Notes: generated from the sequence alone by a model not told the origin. Positions 4,299 to 23,217 are shown, counted from the stretch's first letter. The stretch: 50,040 nucleotides of DNA from a virus (IMGVR_UViG_2529293039_000013); one strand, 5' to 3'. Made by a program: numbers and translations.

Positions 4299-4852
4299 TT
4301 GCGTAACTCCGATAACTCGTTAAAACGTTCCATAAACATCCCATAGGCATGGCCTGGCGACAGTGGAATAACTTTGAACATCTCTGTTGCCGGGATACCT
4401 TCCAGTACAGGCCAGAAAGAGCCATCATCAAGCCCGAGATCGCGGCGTTCGGTTGCCAGCATAATGAGATCGGCATATTTCACTGGCGTGCTCATAACAG
4501 GAGGTAACCCGTATTTCTCACGGATTACGGCGTCTATTTTTTCTTCCATCTGTTTATAGTCAGGAAGAAGGCGTTTCAGTGGCGCGGGGATGTCCTGACA
4601 ATACGCTTCTGTTGCATCATGCATTAACGCTTCAAAAGCAAACTCCTCCGGAACCAGTTTGCTGCAAAGCACCGCATGTTGGGCGACGCTGTAGAAGTGT
4701 GAAAGATGCCCTGCAAAGCGACAGATATTTGAGAGGGAAACTGCGATATCGTTAATCACGATGTCGTCTTTATTTATCCTGTCATAATAAAAATGCTTCC
4801 CGGAAAAAGTTTTAATAAATGACATTTTGTTCTCCACGTATATGCGCTGCAC
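4289..4852 (-). CDS. HD-domain phosphohydrolase (YfdR-like 5'-deoxynucleotidase family)
   Basis: H...HD metal-binding motif (AQHAVLCSK...MHDATEAY). Confidence 0.65.
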   Translation of the reverse strand: MQRIYVENKMSFIKTFSGKHFYYDRINKDDIVINDIAVSLSNICRFAGHLSHFYSVAQHAVLCSKLVPEEFAFEALMHDATEAYCQDIPAPLKRLLPDYKQMEEKIDAVIREKYGLPPVMSTPVKYADLIMLATERRDLGLDDGSFWPVLEGIPATEMFKVIPLSPGHAYGMFMERFNELSELRKCA

Positions 4853-17364: not shown

Positions 17365-19218
17365 ATGTCGATTAAACATTATGATGTTGTCAGGGCGGCG
17401 TCGCCGTCAGACCTTGCGGAAAAGCTGACACACAAACTGAAAGAGGGCTGGCAGCCGTTTGGTAGTCCGGTGGCCATAACCCCTTATACCCTGATGCAGG
17501 CGATTACAGCAGAAGGTGATGTGGTGGTCAGTGGTGCAACTGAGCCGGATTGGTACTACGTCATCGTACTGGCCGGGCAGTCCAATGCCATGGCTTACGG
17601 TGAAGGGCTTCCGCTGCCGGATTCATACGATGCTCCGGATCCGCGCATTAAACAGCTGGCGCGCCGCAGTACAGTTACGCCGGGTGGGGCTGCATGCAGA
17701 TATAACGATATTATTCCGGCCGACCACTGCCTGCATGATGTGCAGGATATGAGTACGCTGAATCATCCGAAGGCAGACCTGAGCAAAGGGCAGTACGGCT
17801 GTGTCGGCCAGGGCTTACATATTGCCAAAAAACTGCTCCCGTATATCCCGAATAACGCGGGGATCCTGCTGGTACCATGCTGTCGTGGTGGTTCGGCATT
17901 CACCCAGGGCGCGGAGGGGACATTCAGTGCGGACACGGGGGCCAGCCAGGATTCGGCACGCTGGGGTGTGGGTAAACCGTTATATCAGGACCTGATTGCG
18001 CGCACTAAAGCTGCATTACAGAAGAACCCGAAAAATGTGTTGCTGGCGGTGTGCTGGATGCAGGGAGAGTTTGACATGAGCGCCGCCACCCACGCACAGC
18101 AACCTGCGCTGTTTACAGCCATGCTGACACAGTTTCGTGCTGACCTCTCCGTGTTTAACGCGCAGTGCCATGGTGGCAGTGCTGCAGATGTGCCGTGGAT
18201 TTGTGGTGACACGACGTATTACTGGAAAAATACATACGCTACCCAGTACGACACCGTGTACGGCGGGTATAAAAACAGGGAGAGTGAGGGCGTTTATTTT
18301 GTGCCCTTCATGACAGACGGTAACGGCGTCAATACCGCCACTAACGCACCGGCAGAAGATCCGGATATTCCGGCATCAGGATATTACGGTGCGGCATCGA
18401 GAACGAATGGAAACCAGGTATCATCAAACCGCCCGACACATTTCAGTTCATGGGCGCGCAGGAGCATTATTCCGGATCGTATGGCAACCGCTATTCTGAA
18501 CGCAGCCGGGCGCACCTCAGCTTTCATCAGTGGTAAGGCACCGGAAATCAAACCCTCGCCCGGCGGCAACACGCCATCGGGGCCGTCTGAAGATGCATCC
18601 GTACGCACAATCTCCCTGTTGCCGACAGCCGGAGAGGCTGCTGCGCAGGGCTGGACCATTAAGGACGGCGGAATTCAGTTGTCGGGTGGTGTATTTAAGA
18701 TCGCCAAGCAGAGCAATAAAACCTGGTCCCTGATGCATCCGGTGGATGACGCAGTCTCCCTGCTGACACGGGGTGGCAGACTGAGCTGTAAGTTTCGACT
18801 GTCAGGCGCACTGACCAACAACCAGTTCGGCCTGGGAATTTATCTGTATACCGATGTAGCGTTACCTGACGTCGTGGCGATGACCGGGACTGGTAACCCG
18901 TTCCTGATGTCGTTCTTCACCCAGACCACAGACGGCAAACTGAATCTGATGCATCACAAGAAAGCAGGAAACACAAAGTTGGGCGAGTTCGGGAATTACA
19001 GTAATGACTGGCAGACGCTGGAACTGGTGTTCACCGCCGGCAGTGCCACGGTTACTCCGAAACTGAATGGAGTGGCTGGCCCGGCATTCCAGGTCATAAA
19101 AGACAGTCTGACACTGGGGCTGAATGCGCTGACGCTGACGGATATTACCAAAAATGCAGCGTATGGCGTTGAGATAGAAAGTCTGGTGCTGGAGATAAAT
19201 GCACCGGCATCATCATAA
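17365..19218 (+). CDS. prophage sialate O-acetylesterase (NanS-p-like; DUF1737 N-terminus plus SASA domain)
   Basis: GQSN esterase motif (VLAGQSNAMAYGEG); 617 aa; position between Q/tRNAs and lysis genes. Confidence 0.8.
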   Translation: MSIKHYDVVRAASPSDLAEKLTHKLKEGWQPFGSPVAITPYTLMQAITAEGDVVVSGATEPDWYYVIVLAGQSNAMAYGEGLPLPDSYDAPDPRIKQLARRSTVTPGGAACRYNDIIPADHCLHDVQDMSTLNHPKADLSKGQYGCVGQGLHIAKKLLPYIPNNAGILLVPCCRGGSAFTQGAEGTFSADTGASQDSARWGVGKPLYQDLIARTKAALQKNPKNVLLAVCWMQGEFDMSAATHAQQPALFTAMLTQFRADLSVFNAQCHGGSAADVPWICGDTTYYWKNTYATQYDTVYGGYKNRESEGVYFVPFMTDGNGVNTATNAPAEDPDIPASGYYGAASRTNGNQVSSNRPTHFSSWARRSIIPDRMATAILNAAGRTSAFISGKAPEIKPSPGGNTPSGPSEDASVRTISLLPTAGEAAAQGWTIKDGGIQLSGGVFKIAKQSNKTWSLMHPVDDAVSLLTRGGRLSCKFRLSGALTNNQFGLGIYLYTDVALPDVVAMTGTGNPFLMSFFTQTTDGKLNLMHHKKAGNTKLGEFGNYSNDWQTLELVFTAGSATVTPKLNGVAGPAFQVIKDSLTLGLNALTLTDITKNAAYGVEIESLVLEINAPASS

Positions 19219-19368
19219 AAAGTGAGCCAGCCAAATGGAAGGTATCGTTAAACTCACCGGTAGTGTCAGTGGGTCGTCTGAGATGCCTGCATGAGTTATC
19301 AGAGCCATCAGTACTTAACTGGTGGCTTTTTTTATTGCTGTCAGCTTCCGGATAACGGGAGACGGGGT

Positions 19369-19584
19369 ATGTACCAGATGGAAAAAATCACAACAGGTGT
19401 GTCATACACCACGTCAGCGGTGGGAACGGGCTACTGGTTCCTGCAGTTGCTGGACAGGGTTTCCCCGTCTCAGTGGGCGGCAATAGGCGTGCTGGGGAGT
19501 CTGCTGTTTGGGCTGCTGACATATCTGACTAACCTGTATTTCAAAATCAGAGAGGACCGTCGTAAGGCGGCGCGGGGGGAGTAA
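19369..19584 (+). CDS. class II pinholin (S21-like) with dual-start motif
   Basis: 71 aa [15 protein letters not shown]...[13 protein letters not shown] matching phage 21 S from memory; Met1 and Met4 starts. Confidence 0.8.
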
Positions 19585-19588
19585 AGCG

Positions 19589-19933
19589 ATGAAGAAAAAA
19601 TACGAACTGGGTGTTAAAGGGATAAATAATTACCCGGATAAGATTACTGTTACTGTGGCACTGGAAATTGGTGGGTATCCGTCACTGTTGTTGCCAGATG
19701 TGGCGATTAGTCTTGACCGTACTGAAGGTGCCACGCTGGAGTTTTACGAAGCTGAGGCGAAAAAGCAGGCGAAGCAGTTTTTCATGGATGTTGCTGCCGG
19801 GTTATGTGAAGGGGATGGTCCGTTGCCGGAAAAGCGGCCCATCATTTTAGAGGCGCAGGATGTGTTGATAACCTACAGAGGAAAACTACCGGGAATAATT
19901 ACTGGTTCTCTGAAGACTCCACCGCTGGCCTGA
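19589..19933 (+). CDS. hypothetical protein inserted between holin and endolysin
   Basis: strong GGGGGGAG RBS; 114 aa; no family recognised. Confidence 0.5.
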   Translation: MKKKYELGVKGINNYPDKITVTVALEIGGYPSLLLPDVAISLDRTEGATLEFYEAEAKKQAKQFFMDVAAGLCEGDGPLPEKRPIILEAQDVLITYRGKLPGIITGSLKTPPLA

Positions 19934-19983
19934 AGACTTAATATATCCAGGGATTTGAAATCGATAAACCCTGATAAATATCC

Positions 19984-20517
19984 ATGAACGCAAAAATCAG
20001 ATACGGCCTGTCGGCTGCCGTTCTGGCGCTGATTGGTGCAGGGGCGTCTGCGCCTGAAATCCTCGACCAGTTTCTTGACGAAAAAGAAGGTAACCACACC
20101 ACGGCATACCGTGATGGTGCGGGTATCTGGACCATCTGCCGCGGTGCCATCCTGGTGGATGGTAAACCTGTCGTCCCGGGCATGAAGTTGTCGAAGGAAA
20201 AATGCGACCAGGTTAACGCCATTGAACGTGATAAGGCGCTGGCATGGGTGGAGAAAAACATCAGAGTGCCACTGACCGAACCCCAGAAAGCGGGGATTGC
20301 GTCATTCTGTCCGTACAACATTGGTCCTGGTAAGTGTTTCCCGTCGACGTTTTACAGACGAATTAATGCAGGTGATCGCAGGGGAGCGTGTGAGGCGATT
20401 CGCTGGTGGATTAAGGACGGTGGCAGAGACTGCCGTATTCGTTCAAACAACTGTTACGGTCAGGTATCCCGTCGTGACCAGGAGAGCGCGCTGGCGTGCT
20501 GGGGTATCGACAGATAA
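19984..20517 (+). CDS. SAR endolysin (T4-lysozyme-like glycoside hydrolase with N-terminal signal-anchor-release domain)
   Basis: hydrophobic Gly/Ala-rich N-terminus (LSAAVLALIGAGASA) then lysozyme region; follows pinholin. Confidence 0.85.
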   Translation: MNAKIRYGLSAAVLALIGAGASAPEILDQFLDEKEGNHTTAYRDGAGIWTICRGAILVDGKPVVPGMKLSKEKCDQVNAIERDKALAWVEKNIRVPLTEPQKAGIASFCPYNIGPGKCFPSTFYRRINAGDRRGACEAIRWWIKDGGRDCRIRSNNCYGQVSRRDQESALACWGIDR

Positions 20518-20611
20518 GCAGAATATTTTGCTGAAAAATAAGGCATGGCCACGCGGGCGGATAACACGAAATCCTGCGAACTGGCGAAACGTAAGTGAAT
20601 AAAAGTAAAAA

Positions 20612-20642
20612 CCCCGTTTGTTGGCACCAAGCGGGGTTTTGT
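20612..20642 (+). terminator. hairpin with T-run immediately downstream of endolysin
   Basis: imperfect hairpin ccccg...cgggg followed by T-rich tract. Confidence 0.45.
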
Positions 20643-20673
20643 GTTTCTGACCTTGAGTAAGGCAAGGGAGAAC

Positions 20674-20856
20674 ATGGCGAAGTATAAACGAATTCTGTTG
20701 AGGTTGACTATGAAAAATGGCCTTGAACTGAAAGCGCCTGTAACTGATGACATCAGCAGAGCACTGGCTTTTGCCATTAAGTGGGTGGCGGTCGGTGTTG
20801 CTGTGTCCCCGATGCTGTATGGGCTGGCAAAACTGGTCATTGCGTTGAAATCGTGA
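20674..20856 (+). CDS. hypothetical protein (60 aa) between endolysin and Rz
   Basis: GGGAGA RBS; hydrophobic C-terminal half. Confidence 0.3.
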
Positions 20857-20870
20857 AGGGAGGATTAAGC

Positions 20871-21002
20871 ATGTCAGACAAACTCATAACGCTGGCGAAG
20901 ATCCTCTGTGTAATTGTCGGCATTTCATTTTCACTAATGCTGGTTGCTCTTTTTCTTTCCATGGCCTGGATGATGTTGTCTTCGTCGGGGTTGCTGGGGT
21001 GA
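20871..21002 (+). CDS. small membrane peptide (43 aa) translationally coupled to Rz
   Basis: GGGAGG RBS; single hydrophobic helix; stop overlaps Rz GTG start. Confidence 0.35.
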
Positions 21003-21472
21003 ACATAAACCGAATGCTTTCCGCGTTTATCGTTATTCTGCTGGTGGCCTGTGGTGCGCTGTGGATGGCAACAGACCATTACCGTGATAACGCGATTACC
21101 TACAAAGCGCAGCGCGATAACAAAGCCAGTGAACTGAAGCTGGCGAACGCAACCATTACTGATATGCAGGTGCGCCAGCGCGATGTTGCTGCGCTCGATG
21201 CAAAATACTCGAGGGAATTATCCGATGCGAGAGCTGAAAATGAAACTCTGCGCGCTGATGTTGCCGCTGGTCGTAAGCGCCTGCGGATCAACGCCACCTG
21301 TCCAGGCTCCGTGCGTGAAGCCCCCACCACCTCCGGCGTGGATAATGCAACCGGCCCCCAACTGGCAGACACCGTTACACGGGATTATTTCACCCTCAGA
21401 GAGCGGCTGATGACGATGCACAAGCAACTGGAAGGGGCACAGGACTATATCCGCACTCAGTGCCTGAAATAA
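20999..21472 (+). CDS. inner-membrane spanin Rz
   Basis: strong similarity to lambda Rz from memory ([15 protein letters not shown]...[10 protein letters not shown]). Confidence 0.85.
21225..21410 (+). CDS. outer-membrane lipoprotein spanin Rz1, embedded in +1 frame of Rz
   Basis: lipobox LPLVVSAC; proline-rich [14 protein letters not shown] as in lambda Rz1. Confidence 0.75.
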
Positions 21473-21822
21473 GTTTTGTTGATGCGCCGTATCGTCGCTG
21501 TATTCCCTCATTAACAGAGACCGCAGCCCGACAGGGAGACTCCTCTGCGCGAGTGTGCGGGGATAATCAAAAACGATACACACCGGGGTTTACCGCGTTA
21601 ACGGAGCGCGGCGTTGTCCCCTCATAGTCGCCTGTCCGGTGCGATGGTGGAAGAAGCCGGATGTTTATCACTATTAATTGATGACACAGAAATGGATTCA
21701 TTGAATTTCAGCACGTTTTTGTATTCGTGTTATTGAACATCTGTTTATTTTACTTTTAACATATTGATAATAAAAAGAGCTGTAAATCTTTAGATGAGTC
21801 GATTTTGTCCGGGGAAGTTCAA

Positions 21823-21963
21823 ATGGATTTTATGCTGACGGTTTCTGGTGTGGTTATCCTGTCCATTGCTTATACTGCAGATAAATATGGCTGCCATTTG
21901 TTATCACGTATTGGCGCTTATTGTTCGTTGATGCTGATTTTCTCGTCGCTTTTTTTTGAGTAA
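21823..21963 (+). CDS. small hydrophobic ORF (46 aa), doubtful
   Basis: ATG with GGGGAAG upstream in AT-rich intergenic region. Confidence 0.2.
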   Translation: MDFMLTVSGVVILSIAYTADKYGCHLLSRIGAYCSLMLIFSSLFFE

Positions 21964-22095
21964 GTTATATTAATTATAACAAATAATTTTCTGTGTTATT
22001 TTTTCAGGCTATCCCGTCAGAGGGGAAGCCTGTACTGCCGGGGAGCGAATGGAAAACTGATGTGTCCGGTAACTGCGTGTTCTGTGAACACCATG

Positions 22096-22281
22096 TTACT
22101 TAATTATGTAATTCATACCCGAACTCTCTGTTGACAGCCTTCTTCTGCAGGCTTCAATAACCCACGCTGAAAAGTTTCCTGAACCTTTCAGATCAAGAGC
22201 GATGTTAATTTGTTCAATCATCTGGTTTGGAAATCGGATGTTGCGGGTTGTTGTTCTGCGGGTTCTGTTCTTTGATGACAT
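22096..22281 (-). CDS. small DNA-binding-like protein (YlcI/YnfO-like, DUF3950?)
   Basis: 61-aa ORF between lysis genes and terminase, the position YlcI occupies in DLP12; sequence not verified. Confidence 0.4.
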   Translation of the reverse strand: MSSKNRTRRTTTRNIRFPNQMIEQINIALDLKGSGNFSAWVIEACRRRLSTESSGMNYIIK

Positions 22282-22487
22282 AATGTTTCCCCATATTCAG
22301 TGTTGCTGATTTGTATTATCTGAAGTTGCTTTTACGTTAATTTGACGCAGATCAATTAATACGATACCTGCGTCATAATTGATTATTTCTCGTGGTTTGA
22401 TGGCGTACACACATGTTGTGATAAACCTTATATAGATGATAATCATTATCATTTCGTGGGTCCTTTCCGGCGATCCGACCGGTTACG

Positions 22488-22499
22488 GGGCGGCGACCT
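22488..22499. other. cos cohesive-end site identical to lambda 12-nt overhang
   Basis: GGGCGGCGACCT followed by cgcgggttttcgctatttatgaaaattt as in lambda cos, about 170 nt upstream of Nu1. Confidence 0.65.
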
Positions 22500-22668
22500 C
22501 GCGGGTTTTCGCTATTTATGAAAATTTTTAGGGAAAAATCAGATCCGTTCTTCTTCTTTTTAACTGTTTGATTATCAATAGAATTTTAAAAATATAAAAG
22601 GATCTGACAAAGGCTGTTTTTGTTAGAAAACGCCATTTTCAGATCCTTTCTGGTTCCCGGGGGAGTGT

Positions 22669-23217
22669 ATGAACGTCAATAAGAAAAAACTGGCCGATAT
22701 TTTTGGCGTTGATGTCAGGACCATCACCGCCTGGCAGAGTCAGGGGTTACCACTAGTTTCTGGTGGAGGGAAAGGGACTGAATCAGTTTTTGATACAACT
22801 GCTGCCATTCAGTGGTATGCGCAGAGGGAAGCTGATATTGAAAACGAAAAACTCCGTAAAGAGAGCGAGGATTTGAGGGCTGCCAGCGAATCAGACCTTC
22901 AGCCCGGCACCATTGATTACGAACGTTACCGACTGACGAAGGCACAGGCCGATGCACAGGAGCTGAAAAATGCTCGTGAGGAAGGCCTTGTCCTCGAGAC
23001 GGAGTTATTTACCTACATCTTTCAGCGAGTGGCACAGAATATATCAGGGATCCTTGTCCGTGTCCCTCAGACACTGCAGCGTAAATACCCTGATATATCA
23101 CCCGCACATCTTGATGCTGTGAAAACTGAAATCGCGAAAGCATCCGATGTGGCTTCTGAAGCCGGTGAGAATGTGCGCAGGTGGATTGATGATTTCAGAC
23201 GAACTGAGGGCGGCTAA
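22669..23217 (+). CDS. terminase small subunit (lambda Nu1-like)
   Basis: N-terminus [28 protein letters not shown] matches lambda Nu1 from memory. Confidence 0.85.

Follow-up and report, generated by a model that had tools for sequence, protein, structure and literature searches.

We examined the lysis region of a 50,040-nucleotide viral sequence, IMGVR_UViG_2529293039_000013 (the whole stretch is hereafter called the window, and positions are counted from its first letter). This region, a lysis cassette from a lambdoid Escherichia coli prophage, lies within a Q-dependent late operon, in which every gene from the antiterminator gene Q to the terminase genes is on the + strand (Table 1). The stop codon of the endolysin gene R and the GTG start codon of the spanin gene Rz are 481 bp apart, and the intervening DNA holds a conserved box, a GC-rich hairpin, and two small open reading frames (ORFs), which we call ORF60 and ORF43. 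In phage lambda, R and Rz overlap by 4 nt, and rrrQ and rzpQ of the Qin prophage of E. coli K-12 also overlap; when named small proteins were sought in the K-12 slot, Qin was found to have no gap between these two genes.

A preliminary description of the window had reported an R-Rz gap of about 480 bp, unlike lambda, with a 60-amino-acid (aa) ORF and a 43-aa single-helix membrane peptide whose stop codon overlaps the Rz GTG. The gap, the 60 codons of ORF60, and the single hydrophobic helix and TGA/GTG overlap of ORF43 all proved correct. The description had also placed a hairpin with a T-run right after R; the hairpin is present, but it begins 91 nt past the R stop. The annotation of E. coli O104:H4 2011C-3493 has the identical gene order, followed by terminase genes.

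Table 1. Features of the late operon around the R-Rz gap in the window
Feature	Position	Strand	Basis or remark
Q antiterminator gene	14142-14936	+	PF03589
Three tRNA genes (Met-Arg-Arg cluster)	15439-15688	+	
Terminator-like hairpin	15702	+	
Terminator-like hairpin	16298	+	Strong
TerB-domain gene	16383-16886	+	Downstream of Q and the tRNA cluster
Terminator-like hairpin	17252	+	Strong
Sialate-esterase gene	17365-19218	+	
Terminator-like hairpin	19301-19329	+	12-bp stem, T7 run
Holin gene S, phage 21 S type	19369-19584	+	Start of lysis cassette; PF04971, E = 9e-33; phrog_9876/phrog_20 holin
YdfR/DUF1327 gene, between holin and endolysin genes	19589-19933	+	PF07041, E = 9e-45; YdfR family in relatives' annotation
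R, endolysin (lysozyme) with hydrophobic N-terminal stretch	19984-20517	+	PF00959, E = 3e-24; phrog_7 endolysin; lysozyme in O104:H4 annotation
24-codon frame, TTG start	20528-20602	+	Spans the conserved box
Conserved box CGGATAACACGAAATCC	20558-20574	+	Left landmark of the variable R-Rz slot
Hypothetical antisense RNA, ~77 nt	20598-20674	-	Prediction; covers ORF60 ribosome-binding site, ends at hairpin
GC-rich hairpin	20608-20640	+	13 pairs, 7-nt loop; A-run before, T-run after (to about 20650)
ORF60, predicted basic N-terminal helix and C-terminal membrane helix	20674-20856	+	phrog_1115; portable gene family
Candidate antisense promoter, ORF60 codons 3-13	20681-20710	-	Consensus scan; TAGTCA-18-TATACT
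80-codon ORF	20837-21079	-	Overlaps ORF43 and Rz start
ORF43, single-helix membrane peptide directly before Rz	20871-21002	+	phrog_4906, E = 2.1e-23
Rz, inner-membrane spanin subunit, GTG start	20999-21472	+	PF03245, E = 7e-47; phrog_13
Rz1, outer-membrane lipoprotein spanin subunit, embedded in Rz	21240-21410	+	PF06085, E = 3e-20

Content of the R-Rz gap in related prophages

Related loci were collected via the 17-nt box after R (CGGATAACACNAARTCC), irrespective of their downstream content, and 96 R-Rz gaps were resolved. By length and content, these gaps represent at least 12 architectures. Among them are a single 45-aa peptide (22 loci), the ORF60 and ORF43 pair of the window (20 loci), a four-peptide array (16 loci), and the protein Ant followed by an ORF43 homologue, as in phages 933W and Sakai Sp10 (13 loci). 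In rarer architectures, one of two DNA methyltransferases or an antirepressor-like protein of 231 aa is encoded. Tiny single-helix peptides of six families recur in varying combinations across the architectures. All genes of the slot are on the + strand, and the last one always ends 0 to 10 nt from the Rz start. The comparison with related prophages, which the preliminary description had proposed, reveals a layout that is common and not peculiar to this phage.

At the left edge of the slot, the box is followed by a hairpin and TTTGTnnTTTCTG in every architecture. The stem of this hairpin has at least three unrelated sequences, in addition to a Salmonella version with compensatory changes. At the right edge, different cargo genes read into the Rz leader GGTGGTGAnATG in different frames. 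Several peptides end in RWW because their genes run into this shared leader; we therefore rejected C-terminal RWW as a functional motif of the slot peptides, since unrelated cargo reads the same leader in other frames. Across 80 loci with an identical ORF43, the identity of the flanking genes ranges from 88 to 100% for R and from 57 to 99% for Rz. Such variation around an unchanged ORF indicates that the module is a mosaic unit.

The box itself is invariant in all E. coli architectures and is kept in Salmonella despite an R that is only 34% identical. It can form a weak 4-bp stem without convincing covariation, and RNAalifold predicted for the box region a weak 10-pair structure, almost devoid of covariation; we do not claim a structured RNA here. 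The 24-codon frame that spans the box (LLKNKAWPRGRITRNPANWRNVSE) has a near-invariant stretch of 15 residues at its end and a variable first part across architectures, a pattern that may reflect either coding or conservation of the box at the nucleotide level. In Salmonella locus L006 (2716-2811), a 33-codon hydrophobic ORF (MAAMICFVAAFMLACDGRSGWGWFLLVGLIVM), which the gene finder did not call, begins within the end of the lysozyme gene and extends into the gap.

Some of the cargo deserves separate mention. The methyltransferase-like genes (311 or 255 aa) follow small peptides and end exactly at the Rz start codon, in gaps of about 1420 nt (loci L137 and L149) or about 1892 nt (loci L132 and L143). 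A short slot peptide, MSAELIRAMAFAIRIVAIAVLVWAIRWW, is a truncated relative of the ORF60 family. Two conserved small membrane peptides encoded directly before Rz lack annotation in reference phage records: a 45-aa peptide ending in IRWW in phage TL-2011c (L010, 2160-2297) and a 48-aa ORF43 homologue in 933W (L004, 2501-2632).

ORF43 and the start of Rz

ORF43 has AGGGAGGA 6 nt upstream of its ATG, and its top 17-residue hydropathy is 2.84. Its TGA overlaps the Rz GTG within GGGGTGA. The Prokaryotic Genome Annotation Pipeline (PGAP) instead places the Rz start at an ATG 15 nt beyond this GTG. Related Rz alleles carry ATT (GTGAGCATAAACCGAATTATT) in place of this ATG, which leaves the GTG as the usable Rz start common to all alleles. 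Given that the last cargo gene ends 0 to 10 nt from the Rz start in every architecture, ORF43 and Rz may reasonably be taken to be translationally coupled through the GTGA overlap, as the preliminary description had supposed when it called the peptide coupled. The 80-codon ORF on the opposite strand probably owes its existence to the composition of the + strand genes that it overlaps.

ORF43 is intact in 141 of 141 loci, which comprise 22 distinct nucleotide sequences, and the pooled ratio of nonsynonymous to synonymous polymorphism (pN/pS) is 0.61. The motifs SDKLI and VGISFS are conserved. In the Ant-type phages, the ATG of ORF43 is lost (ATA), and an in-frame upstream ATG that overlaps the ant stop codon is used instead. 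In every context examined, ORF43 adjoins the Rz start, and its homologues carry E. coli source names only. The Ant-type homologue in strain Sakai is XECs191, now ECs_1966 in RefSeq. In ribosome profiling (RIBOseq) of O157:H7 Sakai grown in LB medium, XECs191 had an RNA value of 30.0 reads per kilobase per million (RPKM), a footprint RPKM of 12.6, a ribosome coverage value (RCV) of 0.43, and an ORF coverage of 0.55 (PMC5597208, S2 Table).

ORF60 and its upstream hairpin

ORF60 has AGGGAG 4 nt upstream of its ATG, a good Shine-Dalgarno sequence, as is that of ORF43, and an alternative in-frame ATG lies at 20710. It matches the profile phrog_1115 over its full length (E = 2.6e-42), as well as phrog_4493 and phrog_3246. 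An AlphaFold2 model (mean predicted local distance difference test score, 75) contains a short helix at residues 3-15 and a long helix at residues 22-59. The core of ORF60 is intact in 131 of 132 loci, with a pooled pN/pS of 0.29 and nearly the whole C-terminal helix conserved. Homologues occur in Salmonella, Escherichia marmotae, Klebsiella, and Enterobacter, and the core is conserved across four genera. The family is nevertheless small: a profile search of 1.84 billion representative proteins retrieved only 17 clusters and did not tie the family to any known one, and a scan of genome contigs with the ORF60 alignment confirmed no locus.

The ORF60 family is found in several genomic contexts. 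In Salmonella, it occupies the R-Rz slot beside a different holin family and the lysozyme that is 34% identical to R. In a P2-like Enterobacter prophage, it lies between the tail tube and tail chaperone genes; in a Klebsiella prophage, inside the baseplate genes; and in one Salmonella prophage, after the tail-fibre genes, in this case with a downstream terminator. After these members were found in tail and baseplate operons, we downgraded a lysis-specific role for ORF60. In each context, a GC-rich hairpin with an A-run before it and a T-run after it is located 30 to 110 nt upstream of the gene, and in four of the five contexts its arms are AAAACCCCG...CGGGGTTTT, as in the window. The presence of the hairpin upstream of family members outside lysis cassettes makes it part of the ORF60 unit and not of the lysis cassette.

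In the window, 33 nt separate the hairpin from the ORF60 start. The stem, 6 of whose 13 bp are G-C, is followed by TTTTGTGTTTCTG and is the longest among the terminator-like sites in 19000-22500. Its folding energy is -18.9 kcal/mol (z = -2.7), and an equally good fold was obtained in 4 of 200 shuffles. The GC-rich stem-loop with a U-rich run directly 3' has the form of an intrinsic terminator, with T6 runs in the Klebsiella and Enterobacter copies, and it reads as one on both strands, more strongly on the + strand. As would be expected of a terminator, the structure is conserved while the sequence varies, with unrelated stems occupying the same site. Among 14 variants of the window-type hairpin, 95.6% of cells are paired and two pairs are changed on both sides; the observed values were reached by only 3 to 4 of 500 shuffles. 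Variants L092 and L158, which precede a different peptide, keep their pairing via G.U, which is valid in + strand RNA only.

Further observations concern the ends and fusions of ORF60-family genes. The sequence CGCTGGTGGTGAnATG (L215, 3150-3176, Klebsiella; L217, 3128-3143, Salmonella), which encodes an RWW peptide end, a stop codon, and the next start codon, follows the family gene before Rz. In a Klebsiella prophage it also precedes a baseplate gene; the unit thus looks as though it carried a ready-made coupling joint for the next gene. An 83-aa protein from a Logan assembly, P0093, has ORF43 at its front fused to the ORF60 core at its end, from which it follows that frame changes or recombination in the peptide arrays create hybrids.

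Prevalence and annotation

A 511-nt stretch from this locus is present at ≥80% coverage in 990 of 5,426 complete E. coli genomes. ORF60 homologues were detected in 1,598 of these genomes, and ORF43 homologues in 1,750, at 4,658 places in total, with as many as 11 in one genome. Both ORFs appear in PGAP annotation as hypothetical (WP_001151822.1 and WP_001280932.1), and phrog_1115 and phrog_4906 are PHROG families of unknown function. Neither ORF has a Pfam or NCBIfam match at E ≤ 0.1. Among the holin profiles of Pfam and PHROGs, neither ORF matches any, and the only match in the region is the S gene. The PADLOC defence-protein models matched neither the two ORFs nor five other slot peptides at E ≤ 1. 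A survey of Stx (Shiga toxin) phage lysis cassettes in BMC Genomics does not mention these ORFs.

Other features of the late operon

Five + strand terminator-like hairpins are located between Q and Rz, of which the one upstream of ORF60 is the last (Table 1). Two of them flank the TerB-domain gene, whose position is presumably the one where Stx phages carry stx. Another lies between the sialate-esterase gene and the holin start. The small RNAs PasA, PasC, and PasD1 have been placed at the esterase-Pas-holin-lysozyme position (2026 preprint), and Rfam has no match at the 19301-19329 hairpin. An Rfam search of 18500-23000 (E ≤ 1) returned only a sub-threshold rimP-leader match, in which the hairpin upstream of ORF60 is read on the minus strand, and a spurious long noncoding RNA. 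The YdfR/DUF1327 gene is intact in the window and is a truncated pseudogene in O104:H4 2011C-3493 (L001, 1226-1561), which makes the junction between S and R a second variable spot; a hypothetical gene on the minus strand follows the pseudogene.

Discussion

On balance, we favor the view that the R-Rz gap, within the Q-dependent late operon, is a slot whose cargo is exchanged by recombination, and that it holds two genuine genes for small inner-membrane proteins, which are expressed late by read-through. In this scheme, the slot would be bounded on the left by the conserved box and the intrinsic-terminator hairpin and on the right by the ribosome-binding region of Rz. The ORF60 family would be a portable mini-gene that moves with its upstream hairpin and settles in several late-operon positions of different phage types; ORF43 would be a peptide confined to E. 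coli whose gene invariably closes the slot ahead of Rz. Both proteins would be made late, together with Rz and Rz1, from the Q-antiterminated transcript reading through the hairpin. We infer this mode of expression because only 33 nt separate the hairpin from ORF60 and because a consensus scan of 19000-22400, which weak or atypical promoters could escape, found no promoter-like site on the + strand. Ribosomes that finish ORF43 may then restart at the overlapping Rz GTG. In the lysogen, the hairpin would stop stray, non-antiterminated transcription arriving from upstream genes.

The preliminary description regarded a terminator inside a lysis operon as unusual and thought that it could affect spanin expression. 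Neither idea is supported by the wider context. The operon starts at the Q gene, a hairpin occupies this site in all of the 12 or more architectures, and, with five + strand hairpins between Q and Rz, read-through would be the normal state of this operon. In lambda, RNA polymerase modified by Q reads through intrinsic terminators, and given such read-through a block to spanin expression is not expected during lytic growth. The layout is ordinary. The preliminary description had overlooked that the slot is widely shared, that both ORFs are annotated as hypothetical in thousands of genomes, and that the hairpin travels with the ORF60 family into contexts unrelated to lysis.

As for function, our best guess is that ORF60 and ORF43 are small membrane helices whose targets, late in infection, are other membrane proteins. 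ORF43 is never separated from Rz, and for this reason we favor for it a role tied to the spanin or lysis step. Because the ORF60 family also occurs in tail operons, we favor for ORF60 a more general role, independent of lysis proteins and possibly involving membrane damage late in infection.

Several observations weigh against this interpretation. The functions just proposed are guesses. Read-through of the hairpin by Q-modified polymerase would hold here by analogy with lambda. ORF43 is only weakly constrained at the amino-acid level, and the ribosome footprints come from its Sakai homologue, where they are barely above the cut-offs of the study and spontaneously induced cells are a possible source. 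In 23 loci, a common hairpin variant carries a C.A mismatch within the GC core, so selection on the hairpin is not absolute. The same hairpin type also precedes essential tail genes in the P2-like phage, for which we know of no antitermination, and this is a poor fit with a strong + strand terminator.

We weighed three other explanations that we consider improbable to different degrees. The first, which extends the view of the preliminary description, takes the hairpin for a functioning terminator or attenuator that reduces spanin expression or sets its timing, in concert with the coupled peptide. A hairpin at this site in all architectures is compatible with that view, partial termination could lower the dose of downstream genes, and the overlap of the ORF43 stop with the Rz start means that Rz translation probably depends on what lies upstream. 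However, the Q antiterminator drives the operon, four other + strand terminator-like hairpins precede this one, which is therefore not special, all head and tail genes lie downstream and need the same transcript, and the hairpin accompanies the ORF60 family into operons unrelated to lysis; we regard a regulatory attenuator as unlikely. We give somewhat less credence still to the idea that the box and the hairpin (about 20528-20650, + strand) form a small RNA processed from the 3' end of R mRNA, with A-R-N repeats and the U-tail as Hfq sites. Five A-R-N triplets (AAU AAA AGU AAA AAC) do lie beside the terminator hairpin at 20598-20612, the box persists beside an R of only 34% identity, and many prophage small RNAs have been reported in the late region (PMC4104026; bioRxiv 10.64898/2026.05.13.724894). 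Yet Rfam offers no match, the covariation of the box is unconvincing, no promoter-like site lies upstream, and the described Pas RNAs precede the holin gene and do not follow R. Moreover, in the examined portion of the crosslinking data for Sakai Sp10, Hfq peaks are at 1941783 and 1946819 and none is at the 3' end of R. Among named RNAs, we rejected an identity of the hairpin region with the Pas RNAs, which are located between the esterase and holin genes; with AgvB or AsxR, both near the stx position; and with EcOnc11, which in Sakai follows Rz and has no conserved counterpart in the window. Least credible to us is that ORF60 and ORF43 are non-functional recombination debris, open by chance or only to deliver ribosomes to the Rz start. 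The relaxed pN/pS of ORF43, its near-even distribution of changes over the three codon positions (28/18/26), and the abundance of hybrid or truncated forms (the P0093 fusion and the 329, 1168, and 1420 classes) would be expected of debris. Such an origin does not sit well with an ORF43 that stays intact in every locus and replaces a lost ATG by an in-frame upstream one, with the retention of its two motifs, with the low pN/pS of an ORF60 core shared by four genera, or with the footprints on the Sakai homologue.

A fourth explanation is more plausible than these, and we hold it only tentatively: that the ORF60 unit is an antisense-controlled toxic-peptide module, like type I toxin-antitoxin systems or the sar/ant pair of phage P22. 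A minus-strand promoter within the first 12 codons of ORF60 would produce an RNA of 75 to 115 nt that covers the ribosome-binding site and ends at the hairpin, which would then serve chiefly to terminate the antisense RNA. This RNA would keep leaky ORF60 expression silent in the lysogen, and after induction strong late transcription would outrun it. In each of five divergent loci, the consensus scan placed a promoter-like site on the minus strand at homologous positions: TAGTCA-18-TATACT in the window and in Salmonella, TAGTCA-18-TATAAT in Klebsiella, TGGTCA-18-TATAAT in Enterobacter, and TTGGCC-16-TATACT in the Salmonella tail-fibre context, where the encoded amino acids differ. Within each region of ~450 nt, it is the sole promoter-like site or one of two. 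These loci are homologous, however, and the matches are thus not independent. In every hairpin, the 5' A-run becomes a U-run on the minus strand, and the predicted antisense RNAs (77 to 113 nt) fold into a 5' part plus a terminator; the fold of the window RNA, with its 3' hairpin and U-run, has z = -2.6, and those of the four other loci have z = -2.0 to -4.7. G.U pairs in some hairpin variants, by contrast, favor a + strand RNA, although those variants precede a different peptide.

Synonymous change in ORF60 is also lower in a 14-codon block (0.29) than in the remaining gene (0.71), as an overlapping promoter might cause. The difference may stem instead from recent recombination (between L006 and L217, 0 of 9 synonymous sites are changed in the block and 25 of 33 elsewhere) or from the start site GAGG-ATG inside the gene. 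A Y-to-C change (TAT to TGT), frequent in E. coli (20 of 110 loci), makes the -10 element weaker, and in the 636 and 696 architectures the ORF60 core lacks this N-terminal block. ORF60 matches no model of Hok, Ldr, TisB, Ibs, or another Pfam toxin, the RNA itself is hypothetical, and our Rfam search assigned it to no family. A precedent exists in the prophage type I module hokW-sokW, which aids phage release (PMC8621323). If the antisense promoter is real, and we see this as possible but doubtful, the ORF60 family would be an undescribed portable mini-cassette made up of a bidirectional terminator, a short leader, a tail-anchored peptide of 45 to 66 aa, and a hidden antisense promoter.

Considered as late-operon cargo, which remains our preferred reading, the module can be placed beside several known systems. 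Juhala and colleagues reportedly described the morons of lambdoid phages in 2000, with bor and lom of lambda and gp15 of HK97 as examples. Classic morons have their own promoter in front and a terminator behind. Like morons, the genes studied here are extra genes between conserved late genes (R and Rz overlap in lambda and in Qin), are absent from close relatives, often encode small membrane proteins, are bounded by a terminator hairpin, and are swapped by recombination. In contrast to classic morons, the scan of 19000-22400 found no sense promoter for the slot genes, their hairpin is in front and not downstream, and the last gene runs into Rz. The module is widespread, annotated, and uncharacterised cargo, a moron variant whose terminator precedes the genes and for which no sense promoter is seen. 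The closest counterparts by position are in the Stx phages 933W, BP-4795, and Sakai Sp10, which share the slot, the box on its left, and the neighbor on its right, and carry ant, an ORF43 homologue, and Rz; in the window, ORF60 occupies the position of ant, and the stem of the hairpin differs in sequence.

The antisense arrangement has two counterparts. In P22, the short sar RNA arises from just inside the late-acting ant gene, spans the ribosome-binding site of ant, and stops at a terminator close by. The antisense RNA hypothesised for 20598-20674 would share this geometry, without sequence similarity to sar. In the Stx2 prophage Sp5, hokW encodes a small inner-membrane peptide that is made after induction and increases phage release, and the short antisense RNA sokW covers its translation start (PMC8621323). 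In the ORF60 unit, sequence analysis predicts elements of the kind that this arrangement would be expected to have; the unit differs in being unrelated in sequence to Hok, in lacking its own sense promoter, and in its location inside a late operon, and both its toxicity and its antisense RNA are hypothetical. Neither the peptide nor the RNA belongs to a described toxin or antisense family (Pfam and NCBIfam, E ≤ 0.1; Rfam, E ≤ 1). Accessory small membrane proteins of lysis cassettes, such as the releasin of Mu (PMC9239132), LydB, LydC, and LydD of P1 (PMC9025707), and LysA of P2, are likewise encoded beside, and co-expressed with, the genes for signal-anchored endolysins, holins, and spanins. 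They have no detectable homology to ORF60 or ORF43, and the ORF60 family, unlike them, also occurs outside lysis cassettes.

About one third of complete E. coli genomes carry ORF43 or ORF60 genes, including genomes with Shiga-toxin phage lysis cassettes, and in Shiga-toxin phages the timing of lysis sets the release of both toxin and phage. For annotation, the lesson is that the gap after R in these phages is coding and that the GTG start of Rz in this allele is missed by PGAP. The survey also offers two testable handles: ORF43 is always joined to the spanin start, and the ORF60 family moves as a unit that brings its own hairpin and perhaps an antisense RNA. If the mini-cassette interpretation is true, the ORF60 family would represent a new type I toxin-antitoxin-like module that inserts in the late operons of tailed Enterobacteriaceae prophages, lambdoid and P2-like ones among them. 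Some of its copies would pass ribosomes to the next gene via the TGGTGGTGAnATG end, and ORF43 would be a separate, spanin-linked peptide.

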